A stretch of 64,000 bases of DNA from the sequence record PP761450.1. One strand, written 5' to 3'. The DNA comes from Escherichia phage LHE287. The translations under genes were made by a program, and so were the position numbers. Numbering within the stretch: the first letter of the stretch is position 1; each line of letters begins with the position of its first letter. Below, one piece after another: positions 4,242-45,831 of this stretch. The notes beneath the pieces were generated by a model that saw nothing but the letters and a program-made list of their open reading frames with translations, ran no database searches and had not been told where the DNA came from.

Positions 4242-4796
4242 ATGAAATATTTTGAGAAGTTTCCACTTGTTTGGCATCAATTGCAAGATGTCCAAGAGAA
4301 TGATCAGGTGCTGTTACAGAATTTAACGCGCCGGGTGATGATCTTACAGAAAATTAAGGACATCGAAGGGCTTCTCCTGCCGTATACGATCCAAGATGGG
4401 GAAACCCCAAGGTCTTTCGCAGAACGCGTTTACGGATCCTTCGAGTTGTTTTGGATACCTTGTCTGATAAACGGCATCATGGACATCAATAAGGACTGGC
4501 CGAAACCGGAACGCCGTATTGTTGAAGAACTGACTGCAGATTACGGCATCGATGGTATGTGGGATACAGCCTATTATGTCGACCAGTTCAACAATGTGAC
4601 CGACGCCCGTGCTATCAAATTTGCATATAACCTAGACCTGGATGAACCGTCCATAATTGCTAACTATGGTCTGACGGCAGTTTCATATCATGATGATGCA
4701 ATCAGTAAGAATGAAGCCAAACGGAACATCCAAGTACTCGACCCAGATTATGTGTCTTCGTTTGTCAATCAGCTGGAGCAGGAGTTGGCGAAATGA
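4242..4796 (+). CDS. Baseplate-associated protein with LysM-like segment
   Basis: YTIQDGETPRSFAERVYGSFELFWI resembles the LysM-like motif of P2 gpX-type baseplate proteins; tightly packed with neighbours. Confidence 0.45.
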   Translation: MKYFEKFPLVWHQLQDVQENDQVLLQNLTRRVMILQKIKDIEGLLLPYTIQDGETPRSFAERVYGSFELFWIPCLINGIMDINKDWPKPERRIVEELTADYGIDGMWDTAYYVDQFNNVTDARAIKFAYNLDLDEPSIIANYGLTAVSYHDDAISKNEAKRNIQVLDPDYVSSFVNQLEQELAK

Positions 4797-6181
4797 TCGA
4801 AAACAGAGAGACCCAAGACGGTATTGTAACACCGTCAACAACATTTGACCTGAAGTATATGGCGATACTCCCTCATACACCCCAGGGTGGATCACCAACG
4901 CCATATGACCTGACGGCGTTGTTTGAGGAGTTCAATGTCTTCCAGGATCTGGGTCTTGAAGGGAAGTCATCTCCATCACTTACAGCCAATGTCTTGATAA
5001 AAGAGGGGTGGGACATTCTTGACACAATGCCTATCTTGGGTGGCGAAGAAGTTGTGGTGTCATTCAAGAGTCCGGCGGCCTCGGAATACACCACTCTCTC
5101 CCTGCGCGTAGCGCGTGTTGGGCGCGTAGCTGATGAGTCCAACAGCTCGTCCAAGAAAGCATTCTGGTTGCACATGGTGACCACCGATGCCTATAAGGAC
5201 AGCATGATCCGATGCTCCCTCGGTCTTGACGGTTCGTATTCTGACATGGCGAAGACAATCTTCAATCAGCTGGAGTCGCGCACCAAGTTCGAAGACATCG
5301 ACCCGTCATATGGAATTCAAGAGCGGTTCGCCACCCCTCTCTGGCCTGTGCTGCGATCTATTGATTATATGGCGAGCCGTTCTTATGACGAATTGTTCAT
5401 GCCATTCGTGTTCTATGAAGACTTCAATGGCTATCACTTCAAGAGCCTGACGACGTTGTTCAACCAGGGCAGCCAGTCATTGACAGCAGAAGAGAAGCAG
5501 GAACTAGCTCAGCAGAACAAGTTGTTCCGTGATCCTCAGGACGCGCCGCTCATGCAGGATAACAACTTCAACTCTGAGCGCTTTATGCGCACGATCATCA
5601 AGGCAGAGAAGAAGCTGGCGCGTGACCAGTTCATGGCAAACTACCGCGATGTCCTGGCGGTGAACGAGCGCGTCTACGACTTTGAGACCAAGACAGTCAC
5701 CCCAACACAGCGCATCTATACTGAGTGGTTTGCAGAGACGGCTCACCTTGATCCGTTCCCGATGTTCTCAGATGAATTCAATCGTCAGAACGTCCGTTAC
5801 ATTGAAGCCCAGCCGGATGGAGCGGAGCAGATTGATTATGCTCGTCGTGTTATCAACTTCAGTCTTGCCAGCACTGTGATGCGCGTGTTGCTCGTTGGTG
5901 ATAACCGCCTGAACGTCGGTCAGGTGTTCTACGTCGAAGACCAGTCCAACCGTCCTAAGAAGAACGAAAACTTGGCAGAGTTAAGTAAGCTATCGACAGG
6001 CCACTATATCGTGACCAAAGTGCGTCACAAGATTTCCCGCCTGACCAAAGATTATCAGTGCATCGCTGAGATTGCCAAGGACAGTTTGCTGGAGCAGGTG
6101 CTTCCACCTCAGACCAATCAGACAACTGCTTCCACCACTACTCCTCAGGCGATTGAGAAAGGCCAAGCACAGAAGGTTTAA
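4793..6181 (+). CDS. Baseplate hub protein candidate (gp27/gpD-like)
   Basis: 462-aa ORF overlapping the upstream gene stop; position between the LysM-like and tape-measure-like genes. Confidence 0.45.
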   Translation: MIENRETQDGIVTPSTTFDLKYMAILPHTPQGGSPTPYDLTALFEEFNVFQDLGLEGKSSPSLTANVLIKEGWDILDTMPILGGEEVVVSFKSPAASEYTTLSLRVARVGRVADESNSSSKKAFWLHMVTTDAYKDSMIRCSLGLDGSYSDMAKTIFNQLESRTKFEDIDPSYGIQERFATPLWPVLRSIDYMASRSYDELFMPFVFYEDFNGYHFKSLTTLFNQGSQSLTAEEKQELAQQNKLFRDPQDAPLMQDNNFNSERFMRTIIKAEKKLARDQFMANYRDVLAVNERVYDFETKTVTPTQRIYTEWFAETAHLDPFPMFSDEFNRQNVRYIEAQPDGAEQIDYARRVINFSLASTVMRVLLVGDNRLNVGQVFYVEDQSNRPKKNENLAELSKLSTGHYIVTKVRHKISRLTKDYQCIAEIAKDSLLEQVLPPQTNQTTASTTTPQAIEKGQAQKV

Positions 6182-6192
6182 CGAGGTGACCC

Positions 6193-8139
6193 ATGGCACA
6201 GGAAGCAACGAACAATGATGTTGTCAAAGTTCTAGACAAGATCAAGGCGGAGATGATGCAGCGCAAACAACTCCGCGCTCAGAATGAAACCAACAAACAG
6301 CTTGACCGGATGAACAAGAATCTGGCCAAGCTGGAATCTGCCACCAAACAGGGCACCAAGGCCGAGTCCAAGCCATTTGAAATCCGTATCCCGACAGTCA
6401 ATGAGATCGTCATGGGATTCGCTCGCATGTCTCCGATCTTCACCCGCGACTTCAGCGTATGGATGAAGGATACTGTCGATGTGGGTAACGAAGGCAATCG
6501 GGAACTGGAGAATATCGCAGGCAAGATTGACCGCCTCGGTGAGATCACCCGCATGCCAACAGATGACACGTCCCTAGAGTATCTTAACCTGATCTCAGAC
6601 CAGCTGAAGTCTGCCAATGATGACACCCTCAAGCGCATGGACGAGCAGAGTGTGTCTCTGGTCCGCGTGGGATCATTCTTGAACATGATCGACGGAGTGA
6701 TGATCGAGGTTCGTGACGATGTTGCTGAACTGAAAAAGAACTCCGATGCCACCCTTACTCGCTTGTCTAGCATTGAAAACAAGATTGGGCGCACGGGCGG
6801 TCATATCGTTGGAGTGCTGACACGCATCTTTGATGAAGACCAGAAGTGGCGTGAGAAGGACGAGATGCGCCGTGGGGAAACCGACAAAGAAACGGGTGGT
6901 CATCCTCAGGCGGGTTCTGTTATACCCAAAGACGATGACCAGAAAGACGATTCCTCCGGTATCGGGGCTGCTGTGGCGGCCATGCTTGGCCTGAATGCAC
7001 TGAAGGGCTTCTTGCTCAAGCCGTTCAAGATCATCGGTGGTGTTGTCGGGACTTTCCTCGGCATGTTCTCCAAGCTGGGAGAAGGTATCACCAAACTTCT
7101 GGGTCCATTTGGGAAGGTGTTCAAGTTCCTGAAAGTCGGCCCACTGGCTCTCCTGTCTATGATCTGGGACTTCGGTAAAGGCTTCATTGATGCGAAGGAG
7201 ATCCTGGGTAAAGGTGCTGTCACGATAGTTGACCGAGTACGGGCGGGGATATCAGAACTGGTTGGTGGATTTGGTGATCTATTTGACTGGGTGTCCAAGA
7301 TCTTTGGCTTTGATACCGAGGCGGGTGAAACCCTGCGCAAATACACCCTCATGATCACTGAGGCTCCCGCTCGTTGGCTGAATGGTATTATCGACTGGAT
7401 TAGCAACGACTTGTTTGCAGGGATCGGGAGAGACACGTCTCTTACGGATATCCCTGGCAAGTTAGCAGACAACCTACAGTCCGAGTTGATAAAGCTGGTA
7501 GACTGGATCACAGGGGGTATCAGTAGTGTGATCGACGAGGGCATGGGTGTGGCCAACAAGGTCATTGACGAAATCAAGAAGGGATTTGCCGAAAATGTGA
7601 AGAAACCTTTCTTCAACATGCTGAACACAATCACCAATGCGATGTTCGATATCGTTGACAAGTTCGTCAGCATCATCCCTGACGCTCTGGGTGGACAGGC
7701 TGCGAAGCAGAAGATGGATGAGGCTCGCCAGTCTATGCTGATTGACACTGATGAGAATCCGTCTCCTAATGTGACAGAGACCCAGCAGCCACAGACGCCA
7801 GCACAACCGAACATCGATCCACAAACGCTGACTCCAATACCTTCTGGTGCGTCTTCGGATGACAAGAATATGACTAATGACCGCACCTCTCAGCTGAAAG
7901 CTGCGTATGGTTCTATCGGGGGTGGTACTCTGGGTGGGGCCATGCCATCACAAGGGAGGGCGCTGTCTAATATTGAGCAAGTACAAGGCGGCTATTCACC
8001 GCCTCCGGCCAGCGTCGTGATGCCAGTACAGCAGAATGTGGATGCTTCTAAGAGGATCAACACGACCAATAACTTCAACAGCTCATATCTTGAGCCTGAG
8101 AACAAAACAGATAATTCCCGCATCCTGTGGGAATGGTAA
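6193..8139 (+). CDS. Tape-measure-like / baseplate hub protein (gp29-like)
   Basis: 648 aa; coiled-coil-rich N-terminus, Gly-rich hydrophobic core (GIGAAVAAMLGLNALKG...GGVVGTFLGMF), Pro/Gln-rich C-terminus. Confidence 0.5.
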   Translation: MAQEATNNDVVKVLDKIKAEMMQRKQLRAQNETNKQLDRMNKNLAKLESATKQGTKAESKPFEIRIPTVNEIVMGFARMSPIFTRDFSVWMKDTVDVGNEGNRELENIAGKIDRLGEITRMPTDDTSLEYLNLISDQLKSANDDTLKRMDEQSVSLVRVGSFLNMIDGVMIEVRDDVAELKKNSDATLTRLSSIENKIGRTGGHIVGVLTRIFDEDQKWREKDEMRRGETDKETGGHPQAGSVIPKDDDQKDDSSGIGAAVAAMLGLNALKGFLLKPFKIIGGVVGTFLGMFSKLGEGITKLLGPFGKVFKFLKVGPLALLSMIWDFGKGFIDAKEILGKGAVTIVDRVRAGISELVGGFGDLFDWVSKIFGFDTEAGETLRKYTLMITEAPARWLNGIIDWISNDLFAGIGRDTSLTDIPGKLADNLQSELIKLVDWITGGISSVIDEGMGVANKVIDEIKKGFAENVKKPFFNMLNTITNAMFDIVDKFVSIIPDALGGQAAKQKMDEARQSMLIDTDENPSPNVTETQQPQTPAQPNIDPQTLTPIPSGASSDDKNMTNDRTSQLKAAYGSIGGGTLGGAMPSQGRALSNIEQVQGGYSPPPASVVMPVQQNVDASKRINTTNNFNSSYLEPENKTDNSRILWEW

Positions 8140-8799: not shown

Positions 8800-9047
8800 T
8801 TGCGTTCCTCTTCTTTAATAAACTGCAATAACTCTTCCATCAGCCCTTTCTTCTTGATGAACTGTAACACCAGGATGAAGCGACGGAAGGAGCGGGGGAC
8901 AACACGATAACCCTTCGCCCAGTAGTTCACAACATTAGAACAATCCAATAAACGAGCCAGCCCAGATTGTGACACCCCGAGGCTCAGCAGAACCTTGTAC
9001 ATGTACTTCTTGTCATTTACCGGAAGCTCTTTCATTCTTAAACTCAT
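8793..9047 (-). CDS. Small HTH DNA-binding protein
   Basis: SQSGLARLLDCSNVVNYWAKG helix-turn-helix-like segment. Confidence 0.4.
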   Translation of the reverse strand: MSLRMKELPVNDKKYMYKVLLSLGVSQSGLARLLDCSNVVNYWAKGYRVVPRSFRRFILVLQFIKKKGLMEELLQFIKEEERKC

Positions 9048-9270
9048 GATACTTGTCCGCTAATGTCTTGTAATATTTGTTAGGATTATACTCCTGTTTG
9101 GAATAGTGAAGAGTAAGGGAAGCACTCAGACCTAGGATAATCACGACAACGAGCGCCTTGTGGTTATTGATCTCGGGAATAGCTATCCACACCAGCAACA
9201 ACACAAGCGAGCTGATAATCAAGGACAGTAAGAACGTTAATGCAATCACCAATGCGAATAGCTCGTCCAT
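9013..9270 (-). CDS. Small membrane protein (two TM helices)
   Basis: ATG start; two long hydrophobic stretches; overlaps neighbour, so uncertain. Confidence 0.35.
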   Translation of the reverse strand: MDELFALVIALTFLLSLIISSLVLLLVWIAIPEINNHKALVVVIILGLSASLTLHYSKQEYNPNKYYKTLADKYHEFKNERASGK

Positions 9271-9274
9271 CAGA

Positions 9275-9508
9275 TCACACCTCTTTGTGATTCTTCATCT
9301 TGCGGACAGTGCCCACAAACCCAAGATCCTTCCCGCAATGGGTGCAGATAGCATGGCAAGCATGGTTCTCACGATAGGTGCTGTGTTTGCAGCGCCATTG
9401 CTTGAACGCCGAACGGGCAACTGGGATCAAGGCGATCAAGAAGACGATGCCGGATATCTGAAGTTCAACCAAGAACTTCGCCCACCAGAAACTCATATAC
9501 TCACCCAT
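9275..9508 (-). CDS. Small membrane protein with C-terminal Cys/His cluster
   Basis: ATG at 9508 with GGAGAAGGG RBS; TM helix then CxH..HxxC..CxxC-like cluster; track start (9598) would lie deep inside the ligase gene. Confidence 0.4.
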   Translation of the reverse strand: MGEYMSFWWAKFLVELQISGIVFLIALIPVARSAFKQWRCKHSTYRENHACHAICTHCGKDLGFVGTVRKMKNHKEV

Positions 9509-10931
9509 TACCCTTCTCCAACAGGAATGTGATGTTTTCGATGTACGCTTTCTGTATCGCATAGACTTCATCCAGTGTGTTGGCCACTTTCTTGTCAATG
9601 CGGACTTCTACAAGGCGAGGTAGGAACAAAGACTTCATCGCATCATCGGTCTTATCCTGTACGCCATTGGAGAGCACTGCGGCGATCTTGCCAATGTAGT
9701 CGCCCTGGTTCTCCCACATATGGCGTCTCAGCTCATCTGAGATCCCTGATACGCCAACAACAAGCAGGCTGTCGGAAGTTTTACAAATCAGTGAGCCAAA
9801 AGTCTTGGCGTGTTTGCCTTTCTTGTCGGCCTCGTTGAATCCCACGATTTCAAGGTCACACTCAACCTCCATCTTCAGCTTCAGACCTTCAGAAGAAGTA
9901 CCATCTTCCCAAGGCATGTCGGCGGCCTTACATATCGTGCCTTCTTCTTTGCGAGCCAGCGCGTCTTTGAAGTGGTCGACGGCTTCGGCAAATGAGTGAA
10001 CAACGCGGGTTTCTTGAACCTGAACCAGACCGTCGTCTTCATCAAACAGTTGCTGGATGATATCGAAGCGGCGCTCATACGGGGTGTCCACGCGCTGGGC
10101 GTTGAACCAGTTGTCGTACGGGATAACATCCCACACCCGGTAGATTACCCGATAACGATCTTCCAGGGGTTCTCCTGTCTGAATCACGCTGTTGAGTTTA
10201 CCGTTACCGACAGCACGAGGCAGGATGGTATTCGACTTGAGGTCAACAACGAGAAGTTCACCATGGAACACACTCTCACCAATCCCCGCATCGTAGATCA
10301 GGTCTTTGAACACCAGTGAAAGGTTATCAACCGAACCACCTGCGATAAGGGAACCGGAGCGAGAGCGAATCTCAGGTTCTTTATTGTACCGACATATGAT
10401 GTTGGCGAACATACCGTCTGACTTCAGCTGGCTGTAGACGCCGCGCTTGAAGTCCATCTTCTTCAGCAGGTCAATCGTCATGTTGTCATAACGATGATAT
10501 GGAAGGATGTTGATCAGGCGTCCAGTGCCTCCGGCGGCGTTGAATGCAGCGTTGATACCCTTCTCTGCGATACCCGCCTTGATATCACGGTCTAGGATCA
10601 TCTGAATGAGTTCGTGGTATTGGGGATCCATCTTCAGGGCGACAGAGGCCAACAGGGCATCAGCCTTTTGGCCACCGACAAGGCGCTGCGCCATCTGGTC
10701 GAGGACGTCATAGACTTCGCTGATGTCATCAGTCTTCTCACGGACGAGCATGCGAGGGTACGCGCTGAGCTTCAACTCAGTCCGATAGAACGACGTCATT
10801 GGGTCATAGACATATTGCAGGAAGTCTGCCAAGTCTGGGTTATTCTTGAATGCTTCGGTCAGCACAGCTTTCTTCGCATTGCTGCCTTTGGTTTCGCGAA
10901 GTCGGTGGACTGTTTCAAGGATAGGGATCAT
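9501..10931 (-). CDS. 30: ATP-dependent DNA ligase
   Basis: 476 aa; adenylation motif KSDG (K-x-D-G); T4 gp30-like length; GGAG RBS. Confidence 0.9.
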   Translation of the reverse strand: MIPILETVHRLRETKGSNAKKAVLTEAFKNNPDLADFLQYVYDPMTSFYRTELKLSAYPRMLVREKTDDISEVYDVLDQMAQRLVGGQKADALLASVALKMDPQYHELIQMILDRDIKAGIAEKGINAAFNAAGGTGRLINILPYHRYDNMTIDLLKKMDFKRGVYSQLKSDGMFANIICRYNKEPEIRSRSGSLIAGGSVDNLSLVFKDLIYDAGIGESVFHGELLVVDLKSNTILPRAVGNGKLNSVIQTGEPLEDRYRVIYRVWDVIPYDNWFNAQRVDTPYERRFDIIQQLFDEDDGLVQVQETRVVHSFAEAVDHFKDALARKEEGTICKAADMPWEDGTSSEGLKLKMEVECDLEIVGFNEADKKGKHAKTFGSLICKTSDSLLVVGVSGISDELRRHMWENQGDYIGKIAAVLSNGVQDKTDDAMKSLFLPRLVEVRIDKKVANTLDEVYAIQKAYIENITFLLEKGNG

Positions 10932-11965: not shown

Positions 11966-13159
11966 TCATAATTTCCTCAATTTGGCTCTAGTGACCTGAG
12001 TTTGTTTAACGCCGTTGTACTCAGTCAGTTCTTTGACACGACCACGGATGATCATATCGCCCTGCAAGAACTCTGTATCCATATAAGAGGTCTTCCAGGT
12101 AATTGTATTGCCTTCTGCTGTTTTGAAAGTAAACAGGTAACTATCACCATATTCATTGGAGAAGAGAAAGGTGCGCTTGTCGAACCTGACTTGCACTTCC
12201 AGCATTTCACCGACTTCACCCACCCATTTGTTCTCCGCCTTGCGGTCAGTACGAGGACGATGGATGTAATCGTAATACTTCTTGGCACCCCAGCGGACTG
12301 TGTTGTTATCCTTGATGAGGTGATAGCCGGGTTCACACATGCGTTTCAGGCGGACATTGAACTCATTGGATTCGGACAGCGCACTGATGAAGAGCTTCAT
12401 ATGGTACATTTCCGACTCGGCATCTTCACGGTATTCGTGTGCCTTGTTTACGAAATACTCTTCATCGGAACCTGCTTTTGGTTTCTGGTGAGACCGGACA
12501 TAGCCCAGTACTTTGTCAAACAGTTCAGACTTGATATCCACGCCTGCCAGCAACACTTGGAAGCATGCGCGCAGGTAACTGTGGGTGTCGGTGAAGCGCT
12601 CATTTTGGACGCGATATATACCCTCTGGGTCGTCCTCGTCTGGCATGAAGAACTCTTGGATTTCCAGATAGTAAGACATAATCGCGTCAAGGGACTTCTG
12701 ATGAGGCACATAATGATGCATACAGGTGCTACCAATCAGCATCTGGGTATGCGTTTCCTCATTTTCAATCACATACGTGTTCTTGCGACGGATGGCTAGA
12801 TTGCAATGCTGACACCAAGAGACGTTCTCTGTCTCGAAGCGACGGATGAAGTCAGGATTGATGTTGTCGGACAGGCGGTTAAGAATAACCTTTGGATATT
12901 CGTGATTGAACTGACCGATGATCTTCCAGCCACCATAAGAGATGGGGCGGTCAATGCCTTCGCCTTCGAGAGTAACAGGTTTCCACCAGTGAGTAAGGAT
13001 CTCACCAGTGAAGTCGCGGGTGTGGGTTTTGAAGGGTTCACCATAAGTCACGGTCGGAAACGGAACACCCAACCTTTCGGCAGTGCGCTCGAGCTTCTTC
13101 AGTCGCTCAACTACCAACCCTTCATTGTCGATCGGAATATTGAATGTTTTGACGTTCAT
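11966..13159 (-). CDS. Hypothetical protein (397 aa)
   Basis: ATG at 13159 with GAGG RBS, downstream of an early-type promoter; no recognisable motifs. Confidence 0.6.
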   Translation of the reverse strand: MNVKTFNIPIDNEGLVVERLKKLERTAERLGVPFPTVTYGEPFKTHTRDFTGEILTHWWKPVTLEGEGIDRPISYGGWKIIGQFNHEYPKVILNRLSDNINPDFIRRFETENVSWCQHCNLAIRRKNTYVIENEETHTQMLIGSTCMHHYVPHQKSLDAIMSYYLEIQEFFMPDEDDPEGIYRVQNERFTDTHSYLRACFQVLLAGVDIKSELFDKVLGYVRSHQKPKAGSDEEYFVNKAHEYREDAESEMYHMKLFISALSESNEFNVRLKRMCEPGYHLIKDNNTVRWGAKKYYDYIHRPRTDRKAENKWVGEVGEMLEVQVRFDKRTFLFSNEYGDSYLFTFKTAEGNTITWKTSYMDTEFLQGDMIIRGRVKELTEYNGVKQTQVTRAKLRKL

Positions 13160-13202
13160 TTCCAGCCTCATGATGTAGTTGTAACTCTTCAATACAGATT
13201 AA

Positions 13203-13231
13203 ATATTAGGCGATTATTTCTTGAAAGTAAA
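13203..13231 (-). promoter_or_regulatory. Early sigma70-like promoter (TTTACT-N17-TAATAT)
   Basis: -35 TTTACT and -10 TAATAT on the minus strand with a 17-bp spacer, just downstream of a terminator hairpin and upstream of the gene starting at 13159. Confidence 0.45.
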
Positions 13232-13246
13232 GTTATTGAAGTAAAA

Positions 13247-13267
13247 AGCCCAGTACTTGACTGGGCT
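13247..13267 (-). terminator. Intrinsic terminator
   Basis: AGCCCAG / CTGGGCT stem, then TTTTT on the minus strand. Confidence 0.5.
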
Positions 13268-13285
13268 TCTTGGTGTTCGATTGAC

Positions 13286-13600
13286 TTATTCGCCACTGAC
13301 ATTCGGATCTCGATCGGGCTTGGCGTTCGGGAATAGAGACTCGTATAAGTCTTGATATTTCTCGCTCGTTTCGATCGTCTTATGGTAAGTTCCATTGGCG
13401 CGGTCGGATACAACCTTGCGCAAGTCGCTGGCCTTGATACCCGTGTCTTTCGCCAGCTCGGCCAGAGTCTCAGTGATGAAAGTCTGTTCCGACTTGATGC
13501 GGACCTGGGCAGCACGACAGTTTTCAATTGCACCTATCAGCTTGCGACGGGATTCAGGATCAGATGGTAGTACATAAAAGCCGATTTGTTCTACAGACAT
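13286..13600 (-). CDS. Hypothetical protein
   Basis: 104-aa ORF, ATG start, tightly packed. Confidence 0.5.
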   Translation of the reverse strand: MSVEQIGFYVLPSDPESRRKLIGAIENCRAAQVRIKSEQTFITETLAELAKDTGIKASDLRKVVSDRANGTYHKTIETSEKYQDLYESLFPNAKPDRDPNVSGE

Positions 13601-13615
13601 TTGGTGTTCCTCTTG

Positions 13616-13951
13616 TTAAGATCTCATGCCTTGTGGGATCAGATTAGTCCCGCAACGGCGTAAAAAGAAGTTTACGATTGAGTGATACTGGAACTTCGGG
13701 ATGATCTCTACACCATCTTCCGTCGTATACCATTCCACTGTGTTGGTGCGCACTGGAAGGGGAAATGACGGCAGATCCAGCTGTACGAGTTCACCCTCTT
13801 GGCATATCATACCAATTCCATATTCCTCCCAGATTTTACGATTGTTGAAGAACTCCAGAGTCTGCTCCGGACTCAGCTCAATCGCTTGTTTGGTGTGGCA
13901 CACCTGTTTGGCGGCCTGCACCAGGCCAGCCATAAAATCATTGTGTGACAT
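13616..13951 (-). CDS. Hypothetical protein
   Basis: 111-aa ORF, ATG start. Confidence 0.5.
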   Translation of the reverse strand: MSHNDFMAGLVQAAKQVCHTKQAIELSPEQTLEFFNNRKIWEEYGIGMICQEGELVQLDLPSFPLPVRTNTVEWYTTEDGVEIIPKFQYHSIVNFFLRRCGTNLIPQGMRS

Positions 13952-14015
13952 GATGTGCTCCTGGTTTACATTCAGATCATAGAATTATACCCTATGACCC
14001 GCTTTATTGAATTGC

Positions 14016-15440
14016 CTAGAATTTCCAATTATTGACTGTTTGGGCTTTCTGCTCATCGCTGGCAGTAGCCCCGGACTTGTTGAGGTCATGTTTGATGTGT
14101 ACGTTTTCGACATATTTGGCCTCAGCCTCGGTCAGGTCCTTCTTAACTTCATTCCAGTCCAGGTCAAACAGGATCTGTTTGTCTTGGTCCATACCAAACA
14201 GGAATGATTTCAGCTTCTGCTTGTTGGCATAACGGTTCTTGAGTATTGAGGCTCGGGCTTTCTTGACCGCCGCCAGTTCGTCAGGAGCATAGAATGCCAT
14301 GATGAAGTCGGCCACCTTCGGAATACCGATAGCATCTGCCAAATCACTGATTCCACCATCAGTGCTATTCTGATTCTCACGATTGAACTGCATACCAGTC
14401 CATACAGGGACATCAAACTCAAATCCCAGCGCACGAAACTCACGAGCCACAGACGTGTAATAGACGTTCGTGTTCTGCATCAGGTGGGCAGGCAGGCGCG
14501 AGGAAGCAGCTTCGCCAAGATAGTCAATAACGATAACATCAGGAGCACGACCAGTTGCCTGGATGTACTCAAGGATATCGCGGCGGAATAAACCTGTGTG
14601 TCCAGTACCAGAAGGATATTCCTTGATGACGATATCACCCTTGGGCGCACCATCTTGGCGACTGCGGAGCTTCTCTATCGTTGCAATATACTCGTGCCTT
14701 GTGAGTTTCTCTAAAGACTCAAAGTCGCGTCGCATGATACGGGCATCAAGACGGTGTCGCCAGACGTTCTCAGCCACTTCAAGGGTGAAGACAAAGACGT
14801 TCAGCCCCTGCTCAGAGTACCCTGCGGTCAGGTCAATCAGCGTTGTGGTCTTACCTGCGTTGATCGCACCTGTTACGATGTTCAGTGTCTTCTTACCAAC
14901 GCCACCACGTGTCGCCTTATTGAAGATCTCAACTGCGAACGGGATCTTGGCCTCGTTGGAGTTCATGTGGTCATACTGCTCTGCCGCCATCTCCCAATAG
15001 ATGTGACCGAGGTATGAATCAAACCGGATCGCCAGGGCTTCCTGCAACATGGTCGGGATGTTGTTCATCTCGTCCTTGCGCTTCTCGTCACCGTAGATGT
15101 TAACGGCGGTCTTGATTGCGTTGTGTACGGCCTTTTGCCGCGCCCAAGCCTCGGTTTCCTTCGCCAGCCACTCTTCATTGAAGGTGTTGTCGTTGATGTT
15201 CTCCAGGGCAGATACCGCCTGGTCAAACACATATTCGTTCAGCTTTGTCCGTTCAAGAATTATAGATAGTGCTTCGACAGACGGGCGGGCATTGTACTCT
15301 GAGGTATAACTGTCAATCAGACCAAAGATGACCTTTTCGCCTTCGTTGTCAAAATAATCGGCTTTCAGGTACGGCAGGATCTTTCTTTGGTAATCTTCAT
15401 TGTAAATCAACTGTGAAAGCACGACAGATTCGAGTAACAT
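14016..15440 (-). CDS. 41: Replicative DNA helicase (DnaB-like, gp41)
   Basis: 474 aa; Walker A GAINAGKTT; T4 gp41-like length. Confidence 0.9.
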   Translation of the reverse strand: MLLESVVLSQLIYNEDYQRKILPYLKADYFDNEGEKVIFGLIDSYTSEYNARPSVEALSIILERTKLNEYVFDQAVSALENINDNTFNEEWLAKETEAWARQKAVHNAIKTAVNIYGDEKRKDEMNNIPTMLQEALAIRFDSYLGHIYWEMAAEQYDHMNSNEAKIPFAVEIFNKATRGGVGKKTLNIVTGAINAGKTTTLIDLTAGYSEQGLNVFVFTLEVAENVWRHRLDARIMRRDFESLEKLTRHEYIATIEKLRSRQDGAPKGDIVIKEYPSGTGHTGLFRRDILEYIQATGRAPDVIVIDYLGEAASSRLPAHLMQNTNVYYTSVAREFRALGFEFDVPVWTGMQFNRENQNSTDGGISDLADAIGIPKVADFIMAFYAPDELAAVKKARASILKNRYANKQKLKSFLFGMDQDKQILFDLDWNEVKKDLTEAEAKYVENVHIKHDLNKSGATASDEQKAQTVNNWKF

Positions 15441-39885: not shown

Positions 39886-40293
39886 TTACGACAGCTGTTT
39901 CAGTTTGTAGATCGTCTGGTAACACAGCGTCTTGATTTCATCAAGAGTGTTCTGAAGGTGGGAGTCACACTGCTTGTAGATGCCATCGACGTCTATCACC
40001 ACACTGTTAATATAGGAGATAGGGTCTGGGTTGTACAATTTGATATTCTCGAATGATGGAACATACTGACCACCCGCACCGATGTATGCTTCGGTAAACG
40101 TGTCCAGCAAGTCCTCTAGATCCCCGTAGAACTCCCCGAGTGCCTTGTGCTTGGCATAGGATGTTGTAACGAAGTGTAAGGCATGAGAGTGGGCTATAGC
40201 AAGCAGTCCACGGTTGATGAAAATACTCGCATTGACCATGATGTTGTCCTCAGAAAAAGAAATCCCCCTGTATTTAAGGGGGATTGTAATCAC
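39886..40293 (-). CDS. Hypothetical protein
   Basis: 135-aa ORF. Confidence 0.45.
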   Translation of the reverse strand: MITIPLKYRGISFSEDNIMVNASIFINRGLLAIAHSHALHFVTTSYAKHKALGEFYGDLEDLLDTFTEAYIGAGGQYVPSFENIKLYNPDPISYINSVVIDVDGIYKQCDSHLQNTLDEIKTLCYQTIYKLKQLS

Positions 40294-40324: not shown

Positions 40325-40630
40325 TTAGTCTTTGTCGGCAGACTTGCCAAAGAAGAATTCGAAGCCGTCATGGACAGCAACGACTTCCTGACCTTGGGAG
40401 ATACCGTGAGTCTGATCCGGAGTCAGCTTCACCTTGATGGTGTTGCCGTTGGTTAACTCCAGGTTGTAGACATCCGCCTGATTGTCAGGAGTGATCTGGG
40501 TCACGGTAGCGCCGGAACACCACTGGGTGCCGTCAGCTTGCTTGGTGATGGATACGGTCTTACCCTGAACACCAGCATGGGTCTGGGGTTGAGCGGCTTG
40601 TTCTTTAAAATATTCGATAAACGGTTTCAT
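40325..40630 (-). CDS. Hypothetical late protein (101 aa)
   Basis: ATG with GGAG RBS, 25 bp downstream of a minus-strand TATAAATA. Confidence 0.5.
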   Translation of the reverse strand: MKPFIEYFKEQAAQPQTHAGVQGKTVSITKQADGTQWCSGATVTQITPDNQADVYNLELTNGNTIKVKLTPDQTHGISQGQEVVAVHDGFEFFFGKSADKD

Positions 40631-40654: not shown

Positions 40655-40662
40655 TATTTATA
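40655..40662 (-). promoter_or_regulatory. T4-type late promoter TATAAATA
   Basis: Exact TATAAATA on the minus strand upstream of the ATG at 40630. Confidence 0.45.
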
Positions 40663-40678
40663 AGCCCCCGAAGGGGCT
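40663..40678 (-). terminator. Hairpin after the large 1124-aa gene
   Basis: AGCCCCCG-AAGGGGCT inverted repeat between the stop at 40687 and the late promoter. Confidence 0.4.
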
Positions 40679-40686
40679 TTTGATGA

Positions 40687-43600
40687 TCAGATCTTAATCT
40701 GCATGTTGCCACCCAGGGACTGCTCGTACTCGCTGTATGCGCCTTCCCCGTAGTCTCGTGCCCACTGGTCAGACTGCTGGGCGCTATCCAGAGTCATCAG
40801 GTTTGGTTCAGTCGGGTTGTAACCCTTGGACTTCGCATCCCGGTACAGAGTCTGCAGGTACTGGTTGGCGCGGTCAATCTGAGCTTTGAACTCGCGATAT
40901 GCCCCTTCAGTTGTGTTGCGGCGGAAGGTGATATCCCAGTCCACGTTCAGAGTCTGACCATCACGGCTTACATAGATCTGCCAATCCAGGTCGCGACCTT
41001 TTGGTGCGTTGTCGCGGATGGAGTCGGCGTATGCCGCAAGGTCGTCCTTCGGATTGTGCGACGTGCTTTTCAGAAGTAGTGCATGACCCATACCACCGTT
41101 TGGCTGAAGAGACCATTTTCCTGTTTCTCTTCCCAGGCGTTCTATGTTGTTGAGTTGGTTTATCGACAATTCAGAAGAGTCAAATAATACCACATCACGT
41201 TTTTTGGGGGTTCTCACATAATGGGTGAGATCAATGTCGATCATCCGGTTTATAAATTCTACCACTTCAGCTTGTTTCTTTGGCAATGTGGTATTGATAT
41301 CCGGCTTGTTTGCCACTTTCTCTAGGCGTTTGTTTTCTGCGCTTATCATGGACAGCATAATTTGTGTAACTTTGCCGTCAGACAAGTTGTAATCATTCCA
41401 AATCACTTCACCTTTATCCGTGATGGTTATATCGTTCAAGAACACCTGGTTTGGGTTGTATGACTGACTTTTCAACTGTTGGAGGTTTCTGGAAAGATAT
41501 TCCATTCTTGATGATATTTCATCAATCATACTCTGGACCACATCTTTGTTCAAAGTAAGTTCATATGTCTTCGGATTGTTCAGGGTACGCCCTTTCTGAG
41601 AGACAATTGGGGTGAATGCAACTTTACCTTTGTCGTAGTAATAGGTCACGTTGGTTATCATAGAAGTACCGGCGTATTTTCCCGTTTCGGGGAAATTGAC
41701 ATCCCACCGAATGGACATACCGTTGACAGTCTCACCAAACACCATGGCGTTGCGCGGTATCTTCAAATTATCCAAAACGGATTGTTCCCCAGAATCAGTG
41801 TTCGGTGGGGTGATATTTTTCTGTTTCCACCAGGCAGTCGCCGCCTTCGTAAACTCTTTAGCCACACCAGACGGAATCGGTGGGAGTTTCAAGGTTTTGG
41901 CCAGGACACCCAAGTCTGAGCCGGACACTTCTGCAAAGGATCTTAATTTTGAGGAAGCACCGTAATACACACCATATACTGGAGTGCCAGAACTTGGTAT
42001 CACATTGATACCACCACCATACATACCTGATTTCTCACGGAACTCCAATACTGGTTGTCCATCAGGTGCCGTTTTGTTATACCAACCAACGACGACGTTC
42101 TCCAAGTTCTTTTCAACGTAGTCCGTTGCTGTTTGAACAAAATCATCAATAATCTTGGGGAATCGTTTTGGATCGCTGATGTCAACATTTTCTAACACAC
42201 CCACAGATGGCGGGAATGCTACCCATTTTTCTGCTGTTGCGTTCCAGGCATTAACAGACATCTGGACTGATTGATTACGTCGCGCAATTGACAGAGTCAG
42301 TTTGTAACGGTCTTTCACAAAGTTCTTGATGTATTCATCATCACCAAATAATTTGCCGCCAGCTGCCTTACTGTAGCCAATGTAATTCAGTAAATTGAGC
42401 CACTTGGATTTGGTAAGTTCACCGCTGTTGTCATTGCCGGTGTCATTGCTGGTGTCAACGTCCACCACCAGAATTATTTGAGAACCTTTCTTGAAAGTGT
42501 ACTGATCGTACATGCCTTTCTTCTGTTTGGTCATGGACGCACCGACCAAGTCTTGGTTGGTGAAGCCGCGCTTCATATTCCAAGATACCTCAGTCCCGTC
42601 TGGATATTTGTCAAAATTATAACCATAGAATACGGCTACTTCTTTCGAACCGCTTATCAGGCGGACGTAGTTTCCACGAATCGGGTCGCGCCCGCTCTTC
42701 AACTCCAGACCAGTGTCCGAGCTGTTGTACCACTCGCGGTTGACTTCGATTTCAGAAGAACCAGCCCCGGTTCCCACACCCCGAGCACCAATAGTGGTGT
42801 TGGAGTCAGCTGGCGCGGACTTCTGCTGAGAACCTTTCCAAAATTTTGTGGACGCCATGGTGAAATCATTCAGGATACTGATAGGGACTTGCGGTAATTT
42901 CAACTGACGAGCAATGAAATCAGCACTTTGCCCACGCACAGGTTTCTCATTCATGTATGCGCCAACATACACGCCCGGCTCATTGTAGTGGGGAGCGATA
43001 TTTGCCGTGTTCATGCGGCCTCTCTCCTTACCAGCCCATAACAACATGGGCTGATCCCCGTTTGAAGTTAATTTCCATCCGTTGGAATTATCAACAGAAG
43101 ATGAAGAACCAGCCCCGGTTCCCAAGTTTGTTTTTCTGGAATCTTCTACGTTTAGATTGAACAATTGTTTCCCAGATGAGTCGGAAGCAATAAATTCATA
43201 TTTCTTGCCACTGCGGGTACTCGTGCTGTTAACTTTGATGTTTCCAGTGTATCTTCCTGGATTCGTTTTTTGCATGAAATTGGTAATTGCAGCAGAAGGG
43301 GTTTTCATCCCAGAAATGATCCTAGCTGTCTCGGGATCAGTGAAAGACACTACGAGTTTGCGCCCATCCATCACTGTGATATCATTTCCAGACACCGAAA
43401 TATCCAAGTCTTCCATTTCAGAACGGAAATCAACACCAACAACAATGGTTTGACCAGTTCCACCCACAACGCCATCAACGCTGTTCTGAACCGGAACGTC
43501 ACCGACCTTGTCTGGATCATCCCAGGTGATACCCTGCATCTTCGGACCGTCAAATACCTGAGCCGGATCTTTACCCTTGCGCACAAGCCACACATAACCA

Positions 43601-44061
43601 CGGTCAGGGACAGGCGCGTAGGTCAGGTCCATGACATTCAGTTTCTGTTTCAGGCCGGACTGGCGGATGATCTTAGGAATCAGGGTCATACCGCGATCCA
43701 GCGCTTTCTTAGAGAAGTTGACAGCAAAGCCATCGATGGTCTTGCCCAGAGGAGTCGCCATGAATTGTTTGGTCGCTTCGATCATGGAAGCGATAACGCG
43801 CATTGGGTTCTTGAAGCGAGCGATGGCGTCAGGATAGACGGAGCCGCGCTTCTGGCCGATGAAAACCTGACGAACGCTCTTACCCAGCCCCTGAGGAGTA
43901 TAGAACTGAATGCGGTATTCCTTATCATCTTCGTCGACGAAGGTAAAGAACACATCGCCTGCGTTCTTCTTACCCATGGTCAGCTCATACGGAGCGGAGT
44001 TGAACGCTTCGTCTAACTGATCTCTTTCCTGCATGAACTGGAGGAAACTTAGCTTTGACAT
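40687..44061 (-). CDS. Large repeat-containing protein of unknown function (1124 aa)
   Basis: Uninterrupted ORF, ATG with AGGAGA RBS; internal duplicated segments (ARQLKLPQVPISILNDFTMASTKFWKG vs AKTLKLPPIPSGVAKEFTKAATAWWKQ; TGAGSS motifs); no recognisable catalytic motif. Confidence 0.7.
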   Translation of the reverse strand: MSKLSFLQFMQERDQLDEAFNSAPYELTMGKKNAGDVFFTFVDEDDKEYRIQFYTPQGLGKSVRQVFIGQKRGSVYPDAIARFKNPMRVIASMIEATKQFMATPLGKTIDGFAVNFSKKALDRGMTLIPKIIRQSGLKQKLNVMDLTYAPVPDRGYVWLVRKGKDPAQVFDGPKMQGITWDDPDKVGDVPVQNSVDGVVGGTGQTIVVGVDFRSEMEDLDISVSGNDITVMDGRKLVVSFTDPETARIISGMKTPSAAITNFMQKTNPGRYTGNIKVNSTSTRSGKKYEFIASDSSGKQLFNLNVEDSRKTNLGTGAGSSSSVDNSNGWKLTSNGDQPMLLWAGKERGRMNTANIAPHYNEPGVYVGAYMNEKPVRGQSADFIARQLKLPQVPISILNDFTMASTKFWKGSQQKSAPADSNTTIGARGVGTGAGSSEIEVNREWYNSSDTGLELKSGRDPIRGNYVRLISGSKEVAVFYGYNFDKYPDGTEVSWNMKRGFTNQDLVGASMTKQKKGMYDQYTFKKGSQIILVVDVDTSNDTGNDNSGELTKSKWLNLLNYIGYSKAAGGKLFGDDEYIKNFVKDRYKLTLSIARRNQSVQMSVNAWNATAEKWVAFPPSVGVLENVDISDPKRFPKIIDDFVQTATDYVEKNLENVVVGWYNKTAPDGQPVLEFREKSGMYGGGINVIPSSGTPVYGVYYGASSKLRSFAEVSGSDLGVLAKTLKLPPIPSGVAKEFTKAATAWWKQKNITPPNTDSGEQSVLDNLKIPRNAMVFGETVNGMSIRWDVNFPETGKYAGTSMITNVTYYYDKGKVAFTPIVSQKGRTLNNPKTYELTLNKDVVQSMIDEISSRMEYLSRNLQQLKSQSYNPNQVFLNDITITDKGEVIWNDYNLSDGKVTQIMLSMISAENKRLEKVANKPDINTTLPKKQAEVVEFINRMIDIDLTHYVRTPKKRDVVLFDSSELSINQLNNIERLGRETGKWSLQPNGGMGHALLLKSTSHNPKDDLAAYADSIRDNAPKGRDLDWQIYVSRDGQTLNVDWDITFRRNTTEGAYREFKAQIDRANQYLQTLYRDAKSKGYNPTEPNLMTLDSAQQSDQWARDYGEGAYSEYEQSLGGNMQIKI

Positions 44062-44578: not shown

Positions 44579-45217
44579 TTACGGCGTCAGATTCACAACC
44601 GGAATGTGGGATCGAATACCTGCGATGATGTCCTTCAGCCGAGGATTCCATCCATCCACCAAACGGGGGAGAGCGATAGCGCCAGGCTGGACCAAAATGA
44701 TGTCGCTGCCTGTGATATTGTGCTGAGGGAACTGGGCAAGGTACTGCTCCATGGTGACACCCTCATCAATCAGAACTGCACCGACGTCAGACGATGCGTA
44801 GGTTGCACCCAGGCCGTCAACACCCCATGCCAAGATACCCCAGTCAGGGATGTTAGCTTCAGATGTGATGGTGAATCCAAACACGGTGTTCAGCGAAGTA
44901 AAGGAGTAGACATCGTGGGTGATGTCATACACCAGATACCCCTTGGCCAGCATATCGGCAAAGATCGCGTCCGTATCGCCAGCAGCCGGAGTCGGTACAG
45001 TAAACAACAGCTCGCCATCAGGAGGAGCAGGATACGTGCCGAGGGCATAGAGGCACCATGCGTCAATACACTTCTTGATAAATGCCTCTGGCGCGACATA
45101 ATCAGCAAGGCGAACCGTACCTGAGTACTCTGATACGATAATGCCTTCCTTCGCACCCTGTAGAGCAATGAAGACCAAGATATGTTCATATCCGGCCTGA
45201 GATGGAGTGATGTTCAT
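44579..45217 (-). CDS. Hypothetical protein
   Basis: ATG at 45217 overlapping the stop of the upstream SLT gene by 1 nt; track start (45313) would overlap that gene by about 100 nt. Confidence 0.5.
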   Translation of the reverse strand: MNITPSQAGYEHILVFIALQGAKEGIIVSEYSGTVRLADYVAPEAFIKKCIDAWCLYALGTYPAPPDGELLFTVPTPAAGDTDAIFADMLAKGYLVYDITHDVYSFTSLNTVFGFTITSEANIPDWGILAWGVDGLGATYASSDVGAVLIDEGVTMEQYLAQFPQHNITGSDIILVQPGAIALPRLVDGWNPRLKDIIAGIRSHIPVVNLTP

Positions 45218-45831
45218 TATCTTGTCCTCTTCAGTTTCTCTATTGTGTGCTTGTTCATGGCGATCACCTGAGGATCTACCTCGGAGATGGTCCGGCCTTC
45301 GAAAGACACACATTTCTGAAGATATTTAGCTTTCTTCACGACGTCGGCAGCATAAGCGTTCGATGCGGGATTACGGGCGAAGCCAGCATTGTAAGAGGAG
45401 AGGGATTTGCGGATATTCTGATTGTGATAGGTCAGCCAGAACTGCATCTCATCGAGGGCGGCTTGCGCGGCATATTCTTGGTCGGTCAGCAACTTTATGG
45501 CGACATTGGCATAACACTTGCGATTCTTACAACCTTCGCGATCACCAACTGTCTTCACCTTGTTCTGAAAGGCTCCCATGTTGGCCGCCTTGAGGCCGTA
45601 TCGCATTGACACTACATCTTCGCCAGCGCGGCTCTCTCGCCAAGATATGGCGGCCAGCGTGTAGCCAAGATCTTGTGTCTTGCCTACGTGATAGGCGGTT
45701 GCCATCGTATTAAGTTGTTGCTCGGAGAAATTATAAACACATTGACTTGTATTTTGGGAAGCGTGCACATTCCCGCTGGCAATGGTAAAGGTCACGGACA
45801 AGGCCATGGCCTTCAACGTTGTCATCGTCAT
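45217..45831 (-). CDS. Secreted lytic transglycosylase (SLT domain)
   Basis: N-terminal signal peptide (MTMTTLKAMALSVTFTIASGNVHA); SLT motifs AISWRESRAG, GAFQ, YNAG. Confidence 0.7.
   Translation of the reverse strand: MTMTTLKAMALSVTFTIASGNVHASQNTSQCVYNFSEQQLNTMATAYHVGKTQDLGYTLAAISWRESRAGEDVVSMRYGLKAANMGAFQNKVKTVGDREGCKNRKCYANVAIKLLTDQEYAAQAALDEMQFWLTYHNQNIRKSLSSYNAGFARNPASNAYAADVVKKAKYLQKCVSFEGRTISEVDPQVIAMNKHTIEKLKRTR

Follow-up and report, generated by a model that had tools for sequence, protein, structure and literature searches.

A cassette-built protein of Escherichia phage LHE287 with an Alt-type N-terminal domain and an internal-head-protein-like module, probably carried inside the capsid

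The stretch of 64,000 nucleotides (nt) of Escherichia phage LHE287 analysed here (PP761450.1, hereafter the window) is Ackermannviridae (ViI-like) phage DNA, with Escherichia phage vB_EcoM-ZQ1 as its closest match, and the subject of this work, hereafter the target, is the longest open reading frame (ORF) of the region. A first-pass annotation had placed it at 40687..44061 and had given it 1124 amino acids (aa); we confirmed these values, with the gene on the minus strand and starting at ATG, and the peptides quoted in that annotation were all located in the product (aa 384, 721, 363 and 694, with TGAGSS at aa 315 and 431). The gene belongs to a minus-strand block of conserved order, i.e., the gp47 and gp46 recombination nuclease, small ORFs, an SLT-like gene, a DUF7270 gene, a 111-aa ORF, the target, a 101-aa ORF, a DUF5856 gene and primase. 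The target protein falls in PHROG 3867, the Ackermannviridae family named 'unknown structural protein', and nearly all records of its homologues read 'hypothetical protein', the rest being called 'unknown structural protein', 'phage associated protein', in one case 'endolysin' and in a few cases 'tail completion protein'. We consider it reasonably probable that the target is a capsid-internal protein of the Alt and internal protein (IP) type, likely ejected with the DNA, and organised as a polyvalent chain of modules.

The module borders were taken from the BLASTP breakpoints against 120 Ackermannviridae homologues (654-1208 aa) and lie at aa 198, 317, 429, 552, 657, 765, 915 and 998, giving nine modules in the order N-A-B1-C-D-B2-E-F-G (Table 1). 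Module N is nearly unchanging, with 135 of the first 198 positions invariant in a 46-sequence alignment, and module G is also the C-terminus of at least 11 more distant N-domain proteins among those listed. Self-BLASTP of the protein returned the identity match only, and repeats were scored instead by tiled Smith-Waterman comparison against shuffled sequences. The segment aa 301-460 scored 108 against aa 621-780 (31.0 +/- 5.6 in 500 shuffles, maximum 52), and the repeated unit reported by the first-pass annotation is thus present, about aa 327-430 aligning with 658-762 in a unit of roughly 105 aa. A second pair absent from that annotation joins aa 820-903 and 1031-1124 (score 76; shuffles 30 +/- 5, maximum 55). 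The statement that the protein is built from internally duplicated segments is too strong, as these two significant pairs of about 30% identity span only about one third of the length, and modules N, A, C, D and F are mutually unrelated. The TGAGSS 'loops' turned out to be no part of the repeat unit, and they are instead linkers at the A-B1 and B1-C junctions, encoded by 20 nt identical at both sites (GGAACCGGGGCTGGTTCTTC). The organising principle of the protein is a mosaic of exchangeable cassettes with two old paralogous pairs.

Table 1. Features of the target gene and its surroundings in the window
Feature	Position	Strand	Description
Whole ORF	40687..44061	-	ATG start, 1124 aa, about 125 kDa, isoelectric point (pI) 8.8
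Leader MSKLSFLQFMQERDQLDE	44008..44061	-	aa 1-18, predicted helical, resembling a capsid targeting sequence (CTS), ends L-D-E before A (candidate T4-type prohead-protease site)
Module N	43468..44007	-	aa 19-198, conserved N-terminal domain, GNAT-like fold, homologous to T4 Alt-type N-terminal domain
Cassette A	43111..43467	-	aa 199-317, optional, in a minority of homologues
Linker 1, G-T-G-A-G-S-S	43102..43122	-	aa 314-320, A-B1 junction, 20 nt same as linker 2
Cassette B1	42775..43110	-	aa 318-429, first repeat copy, commonest cassette of the family
Linker 2, G-T-G-A-G-S-S	42754..42774	-	aa 430-436, B1-C junction
Cassette C	42406..42774	-	aa 430-552, beta-rich, acidic (pI 5.1)
Cassette D	42091..42405	-	aa 553-657, rarest cassette among homologues
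Cassette B2	41767..42090	-	aa 658-765, second, diverged repeat copy (about 30% identical to B1)
Module E	41317..41766	-	aa 766-915, in 120/120 homologues listed, four or five beta strands then a long helix, paralogous to G
Cassette F	41068..41316	-	aa 916-998, homologous to mature T-even internal head proteins (RB15 Ip9, CIP9 'ipI'; PHROG 7673)
Module G	40690..41067	-	aa 999-1124, C-terminal 'bookend', paralogous to E
GC-rich hairpin AAGCCCC-TTCG-GGGGCTT	40655..40679	-	directly after the stop codon, overlaps the late-promoter box
Late-promoter box TATAAATA (T4-type)	40655-40662	-	just past the target stop codon, upstream of the next ORF
Sigma-70-like site	44549-44521	-	precedes the upstream 111-aa ORF
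101-aa ORF	40325..40630	-	directly downstream of the target
DUF5856 protein	39886-40239	-	117 aa
DUF7270 protein	44579-45217	-	212 aa
SLT-like protein	45217-45831	-	204 aa

The earlier statement that the protein has no recognisable catalytic motif stands, as neither the whole protein nor its segments had a Pfam match above threshold and a sequence search of the PDB gave nothing. Pfam and PHROG scans of ten homologues that carry other cassettes (about 109, 203, 320 and 336 aa) likewise returned no known domain. The full-length AlphaFold model, built with 46 close homologues, is poor (mean predicted local distance difference test score, pLDDT, 42), cassette B1 being the best-modelled variable part (pLDDT 70-85), and a Foldseek search of this model against the PDB found nothing at E below 0.04. 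Foldseek matches of modules E and G to PUR-, Whirly-, p32- and CapZ-like proteins were not significant and were set aside.

The cassettes are shuffled among relatives. The 120 homologues display at least 40 architectures with a permuted cassette order, N standing first in all but two, whose sequences begin within B1, and the end being F, G or F-G. Their middle consists of varying subsets of A, B, C and D together with the unrelated cassettes mentioned above, and N-B1-C, N-C-B1, N-C-A and N-A-C-B1 are all found. Depending on the phage, the heptapeptide G-[TV]-G-A-G-S-S bridges N and C, A and B1, A and C, or B1 and C, and Klebsiella phage Menlow has the same linker 20-mer at its B1-C junction. 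Cassettes A-D were found in Ackermannviridae only, and the family ranges from 531 aa to 1208 aa. Compared with phage ZQ1 at the DNA level, the flanks of the target gene are 96-99% identical and the cassette order is different. Compared with Menlow, the flanks are 72-78% identical, whereas the cassette block (window 43106-41429) is 93.7% identical, and because of this difference the cassettes must have moved between genera recently. The protein of Klebsiella virus vB_KpnM-20 is 97.5% identical across cassettes B1 to B2. The target itself looks like a recombinant when compared piece by piece, with aa 1-429 being 98% identical to type P0022, aa 429-997 94% identical to P0007 and aa 766-1124 98% identical to P0005, and the linker is the exact site of the first of these switches, from P0022 to P0007. 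In no phage record does coverage of the A-B2 array reach 80%, and the exact protein is absent from a collection of 15 billion proteins.

The constant N-terminal part leads to T4 Alt. When 1.84 billion cluster representatives were searched in full with aa 1-200, 95 proteins of 279-1681 aa, apart from two short fragments, were identified, in which the match begins within the first 50 residues or so and in most at the very start; behind the domain these 95 representatives carry 51 unrelated C-terminal types. With a diverse alignment of N-domain relatives, the AlphaFold model of aa 1-200 is confident (pLDDT 88.9; predicted template modelling score 0.80) and has the alpha/beta fold of the GNAT family. 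In BFVD, Foldseek with this model retrieved the domain's own family first and then the Alt-type ADP-ribosyltransferases of phages phiAS5, HY03, CF1, SP18, Henu6 and Melville, these six Alt-annotated matches having probability 1.00 and E values of 1.6e-6 to 1.4e-4 over 175-189 columns. The N-domain profile matched the Melville Alt-like protein at E = 1e-7 over aa 80-171, and this protein is 63% identical to the N-terminus of T4 Alt. Direct comparisons of the domain with T4 Alt were weak (BLASTP E = 0.38; profile E = 0.27 in a background of 451 ORFs; hhalign P = 0.004 with probability 9%), with all three alignments colinear, and the link to Alt is for that reason made through the Melville protein and through structure. 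The protein-database search with the T4 Alt N-terminus, intended as the source of an Alt profile, gave 4 proteins only. We conclude that module N is the Alt N-terminal domain, heading a different cargo. Among its distant relatives, Pfam ADPrib_exo_Tox occurs in 4 and the anthrax-lethal-factor domain in 1 of the 51 representatives scanned, and seven proteins of the full N-domain set match the T4 Alt catalytic domain (best E = 1e-15). The target lacks the C-terminal R-S-E catalytic domain of an ADP-ribosyltransferase (ART; Pfam ADPrib_exo_Tox), as there was no Pfam hit and phmmer of T4 Alt returned nothing at E <= 10.

Several further observations concern the distribution of this domain. The BFVD entries A0A6J5KPZ7, A0A6J5LH38 and A0A2L0UZ96 combine its fold with cytidine deaminase, ParB/sulfiredoxin and zeta-toxin annotations in other phages, including Agrobacterium phage Atu_ph07, and the fold also occurs there in many stand-alone proteins of about 150 aa. 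Vibrio phage YC (MH375644, stretch L005) encodes three N-domain paralogues at 4769-6862, 8977-10725 and 12832-14730 whose C-terminal regions differ, and 2-3 copies per genome are present in many other Vibrio Ackermannviridae and in Ralstonia phage RSP15. Two relatives of the T4 Alt N-terminus (P0216 and P0217) bear the precomputed Pfam label PF26846, which was not among the matches of T4 Alt aa 1-200 in the Pfam copy used; an Alt N-terminal family may already exist in a newer release of Pfam. A match of the N-domain profile to T4 Cd.1 (NC_000866, stretch L004, about 14747-14864 on the minus strand) covered 38 aa at E = 0.0016 in the 451-ORF background and was rejected as too short and weak, being probably a chance match.

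A short leader precedes the domain, and its end resembles a site for a prohead protease. Across 93 representatives the leaders vary in length (median 16 residues), and the junction reads L (62) or I (18), any residue, E (91), then A (70) or S (17), F, N or D, S, any residue and P; in the target the leader ends L-D-E18/A19, where the slash marks the junction. This agrees with the motif of the T4 prohead protease gp21, L/I-X-E, which was first defined at a Glu-Ala bond, and T4 Alt has an N-terminal propeptide removed and its C-terminus trimmed too (PMC9026906). Cleavage of the target at E18/A19 by the prohead protease is thus a specific prediction. The part of the leader most like a CTS, MSKLSFLQFMQE (SFLQFMQE), has the aromatic-x-x-aromatic-x-x-E pattern of the canonical 10-residue CTS, MKT[YF][QK]EF..E, but departs from that sequence otherwise. 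Comparable leaders are found in three adjacent virion proteins of phage Sajous1, gp214 (SFLNFLEE), gp215 (MKPFIEYFKE) and gp216 (MKGFPDFLKE), and in remote relatives (MLNFQEFQE), those of gp215 and the remote relatives being closer to the canonical sequence than the target's. A scarcity of L/I-x-E in the target, 1 against 5.7 expected (p about 0.02), might be expected if the mature protein sits beside a gp21-like protease; it was dropped as evidence, since the relatives are undepleted.

The second homology points in the same direction from the other end of the chain. The core of cassette F (aa 926-982) has a match (E about 1e-10) in PHROG 7673, the family named 'internal head protein', and phmmer aligned the cassette with RB15 Ip9 and with 'ipI' of Enterobacter phage CIP9 at E about 1e-11, both being proteins of 90 aa that begin with the canonical CTS MKTYQEFI-E. 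A tblastn search, restricted to matches under 60% identity, found 153 records at 35-53% identity, and all those examined were T4-like phages. Homology to a structural protein does not explain the whole length of the target, as the resemblance to internal head proteins spans about 60-70 aa. The T-even internal proteins are packaged and injected. For T4 Ip1, Ip2 and Ip3 a stoichiometric inhibition has been described, each acting on one distinct GmrSD type IV restriction enzyme (PMC12373910).

Homologues are abundant in virions of two other genera. The homologue in Sajous1 (Kuttervirus) is gp214, 65% identical to the target over its first 278 aa and with a conserved C-terminus, and it gave 196 spectra in liquid chromatography-tandem mass spectrometry of CsCl-purified virions, the third-highest count in Table 6 of that study, which also detected the prohead protease and core proteins that Ackermannviridae encode (PMC10892097). 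In LIMEstone1 (Limestonevirus) the homologue is split in the annotation, ORF082 being the N-terminal part and ORF081 the rest, and both are a 'confirmed structural protein', ORF081 being covered to 55% by 23 unique peptides and ranking behind the tail sheath only (PMC3296691). Coodle, of the same species, has one ORF of 531 aa, and the two LIMEstone1 ORFs overlap by 23 nt (HE600015, stretch L007, 7416-9012 on the minus strand); the split is probably a frameshift or a sequencing error in the 2012 record and not two genes. Products of neighbouring genes are in virions as well, i.e., gp211, gp215 (189 aa, 32 spectra), gp216 and gp217 of Sajous1 (PMC10892097) and ORF078, ORF080 and ORF085 of LIMEstone1 (PMC3296691). 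Because several neighbours were detected, the gp46-primase cluster encodes particle proteins even though it lies amid replication genes. With the abundance in virions, the Alt-like N-domain and the internal-protein-like cassette F, the 'virion-associated or injected' option of the first-pass annotation becomes the favoured one.

Presence in the particle could also mean an external component that decorates the head or belongs to the neck or tail as an accessory. Its variable cassettes would then be exposed binding modules, like Hoc or Ig-like decorations, which fit the particle to different cell surfaces or environments. The abundance in purified virions fits such a protein, as do the beta-rich cassettes of about 100-120 aa, and their variability and exchange between genera resemble those of receptor-binding proteins. 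The name 'tail completion protein', carried by the records of Sajous1, Guerrero and UPM 2146, also speaks for it. The name was given to gp214 by the Sajous1 authors without supporting analysis (PMC10892097), and the GenBank entry for gp214 reads hypothetical. The target matched no family of tail completion or tail terminator proteins, for instance T4 gp3 or gp15, in Pfam, the PHROGs or a PDB sequence search, and the same resources gave no likeness to fibre, spike or decoration proteins beyond a sub-threshold match to Tail_spike_N (E = 0.017). The label is unsupported and is starting to spread between records. Moreover, the N-domain is shared with T4 Alt, which is internal and injected, and with proteins bearing toxin-like enzymes, cassette F is homologous to a capsid-internal protein, and LIMEstone1 has a separate Hoc protein. 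We therefore regard an external location as improbable.

The position of the gene would suit an early or middle host-takeover factor that is not packaged at all and was detected in virions as a contaminant. It lies in the replication and recombination block, with a sigma-70-like or middle promoter upstream, and the Sajous1 virion preparation held some non-structural proteins at low counts. Yet the contaminants gave 1-5 spectra, far below the 196 spectra of gp214 and the 23 unique peptides of the independent study in another genus, and the N-domain is shared with the packaged Alt, which makes this explanation very hard to sustain. As for the promoters, the first-pass annotation had set the gene between an early-promoter gene and a late promoter. 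A late-promoter box does lie 3' of the gene, where a late promoter is also annotated at the equivalent place in LIMEstone1, and a sigma-70-like site stands before the upstream 111-aa ORF; directly upstream of the gene itself there is neither.

Inside the capsid, the protein might alternatively serve a mechanical role by organising or pressurising the DNA or by forming part of an ejection conduit across the envelope, like the E-proteins of P22 or the inner body of phiKZ, the cassettes being relaxed spacers. The same packaging-related evidence applies, the protein is large, mildly basic (pI 8.8), abundant and without a catalytic domain, modules E and G resemble, weakly and non-significantly, the beta4-alpha nucleic-acid-binding folds of PUR and Whirly proteins, and a lytic transglycosylase detected in virions is encoded nearby. 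Relaxed spacers would, however, be expected to drift and not to pass intact, still 94-97% identical, between genera that share about 74% identity in the flanks. Relatives with ADP-ribosyltransferase, lethal-factor, deaminase or zeta-toxin domains behind the N-domain point instead to effector delivery, and a range of 531 to 1208 aa is hard to square with a fixed structural role. A mechanical function is thus unlikely, in our view.

We propose for the target, as a capsid-internal and probably ejected protein, the following course of events. After its synthesis in the infected cell it would enter the prohead during assembly, with loading depending on the N-terminal part, i.e., the CTS-like helical leader and the Alt-homologous GNAT-fold domain. 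A gp21-type prohead protease would cut the leader off, leaving a mature protein of about 123 kDa with A19 at its N-terminus (AFNSAPYELTMGK), which would stay in the head with the DNA and exit with it at infection. Inside the host, A, B1, C, D, B2 and F, framed by E and G, would act without catalysis, and most plausibly the cassettes would block host defence proteins by binding to them, in the way that T4 Ip1-3 each block one GmrSD enzyme. Type IV-like restriction is a relevant threat to ViI-like phages because of the hypermodified thymidine in their DNA. Homologous recombination, often at the shared G-T-G-A-G-S-S linker with its 20 identical nt, would reshuffle the cassettes, and this, we suggest, is why close relatives carry different combinations. 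Of the earlier suggestion of an injected or host-takeover protein, the virion presence in relatives is borne out, and injection and takeover activity are what we infer from the likeness to Alt and the internal proteins.

Several points weigh against this proposal. The virion proteomics come from relatives and not from LHE287 itself, and an internal rather than a tail or capsid-surface location is what we infer from homology, while one paper says 'tail completion protein', giving no evidence. A search of the literature gave neither a cryo-electron microscopy structure nor a structural atlas of an Ackermannviridae virion in which the protein is located, nor any work on its head location or injection. 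The leader resembles the T4 CTS but departs from its canonical sequence, and L/I-x-E is not depleted in ten homologues and the remote representatives (470 observed against 489 expected). The GNAT-like domain might itself be an enzyme and not a packaging module, and seven-eighths of the protein are not confidently modelled. Except for F, no cassette has a homologue outside Ackermannviridae in Pfam, PHROG and sequence searches, and because of this the anti-defence role is argued by analogy only. The gene is surrounded by replication and recombination genes and is not preceded by a late promoter, although in T4, too, alt and the ip genes are found outside the head-gene cluster.

A broader reading, which we offer as tentative and rather doubtful, is that the Alt-type GNAT-fold N-domain with its cleavable leader could be a general, unrecognised tag for capsid loading and injection in many myophages, by which any protein part fused behind it would reach the host. 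The target would then be a combinatorial anti-defence string, equivalent to the whole T-even Ip locus in one polypeptide, whose cassettes are swapped at a dedicated G-T-G-A-G-S-S linker so that each phage carries its own inhibitor set against host nucleases attacking its hypermodified DNA. Such a tag may extend over Ackermannviridae and T4-like, Vibrio, Aeromonas, Ralstonia and Atu_ph07-like phages.

The neighbouring genes deserve attention of their own. The 101-aa ORF stands behind the T4-type late-promoter box, and its product begins with the CTS-like MKPFIEYFKE followed by Q. It aligns with the first 100 of the 189 positions of the PHROG 4048 profile, appears truncated relative to the 189-aa gp215 of Sajous1 and has a weak TOBE-like signal (E = 0.0035); it is a candidate for a small internal protein of the same cluster. 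The DUF5856 protein belongs to PHROG 858, 'starvation-inducible regulator', and looks Dps- or ferritin-like; its homologues are present in virions (Sajous1 gp217 and LIMEstone1 ORF078), and a ferritin-like protein thus appears to be packaged. The DUF7270 protein has a confirmed structural protein as its LIMEstone1 counterpart (ORF085). The SLT-like protein has a signal-peptide-like N-terminus and a weak match to the SLT lytic-transglycosylase family, its Sajous1 homologue gp211 gave 31 virion spectra, and the label 'RegB endoribonuclease' that it bears in several genome records looks like a propagated misannotation.

To our knowledge, the phage molecules that host immunity encounters first are the injected proteins, of which very few have been characterised; for T4, activities are known for Alt and Ip1-3 only. 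In the searchable literature we found no description of the relation of this family to Alt, of the Ip9-like cassette or of linker-mediated cassette exchange, and the family itself has been known from proteomes since 2012 as 'unknown structural protein'. Our analysis ties this abundant protein of therapeutically used ViI-like phages, which infect Salmonella, E. coli O157, Klebsiella and Dickeya, to the Alt/Ip paradigm and defines a conserved N-terminal domain heading more than 50 kinds of cargo. If the domain is a packaging determinant, it could provide a search handle for injected effectors and a tool to load foreign proteins into capsids. Phages of 96-99% identity elsewhere carry different cassette arrays, and the array is for that reason, next to the tailspikes, a candidate determinant of host range at the level of strains; this is relevant to choosing or engineering therapeutic phages. 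The 'tail completion protein' annotation needs correction.

Among the known systems, the GNAT acyltransferases are close to the N-domain in fold, but the identity is only 4-14%, no Pfam GNAT model is matched, and the motif that binds the acetyl-CoA pyrophosphate (motif A, Q/R-x-x-G-x-G/A, after beta-4) is not retained. At that place the family has the consensus GFAxxxxxxAxxR, and in a 43-sequence alignment inspected by eye only A120 and R123 are conserved after G111-F-A, with no G-x-G/A. The domain may thus be a non-catalytic use of the GNAT fold, as in antizyme. Polyvalent proteins resemble the target in having many domains per polypeptide and architectures that vary between related elements, and they are predicted or shown to enter the new host with the DNA and act early (Iyer et al. 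2017, PMC5512222). In contrast to them, no signature domain (MuF, Tox-ART-HYD2, ParB, MPTase or kinases) was found by Pfam in the target or its ten homologues, and the delivery module is the Alt-type N-domain and not MuF or portal; Alt-clade proteins were explicitly set apart from the polyvalent proteins by the same authors (PMC5512222).

With the T-even internal proteins (Ip1-Ip3 of T4 and Ip5-Ip12 of RB phages) the target shares the likeness of cassette F to mature Ip9, hypervariability between close relatives and the occurrence of the family in virions, and its leader resembles their CTS. They differ in that the internal proteins are separate, 8-20 kDa in size and provided each with its own CTS of 10 aa, whereas the target is a 125-kDa chain headed by an Alt-type domain, in which the IP-like part is a single link; none of the other cassettes is homologous to an IP. 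T4 Alt (PHROG 802), a packaged and injected RNA-polymerase ADP-ribosyltransferase, is similar in its N-terminal domain of about 180 aa by structure and sequence, in a short leader ending in [L/I]-x-E right before that domain (MELITE/LFDE in Alt, QLDE/AFNS in the target), in being a large virion protein, as the target is in its relatives, and in having its gene outside the head-gene cluster. Injection and processing are established for Alt and would be expected for the target by analogy. The target lacks the ART and has no match to Alt past the N-domain, the middle and catalytic regions of Alt being replaced by non-catalytic, exchangeable cassettes, while distant proteins that share the target's N-domain bear an Alt-like C-terminal ART.

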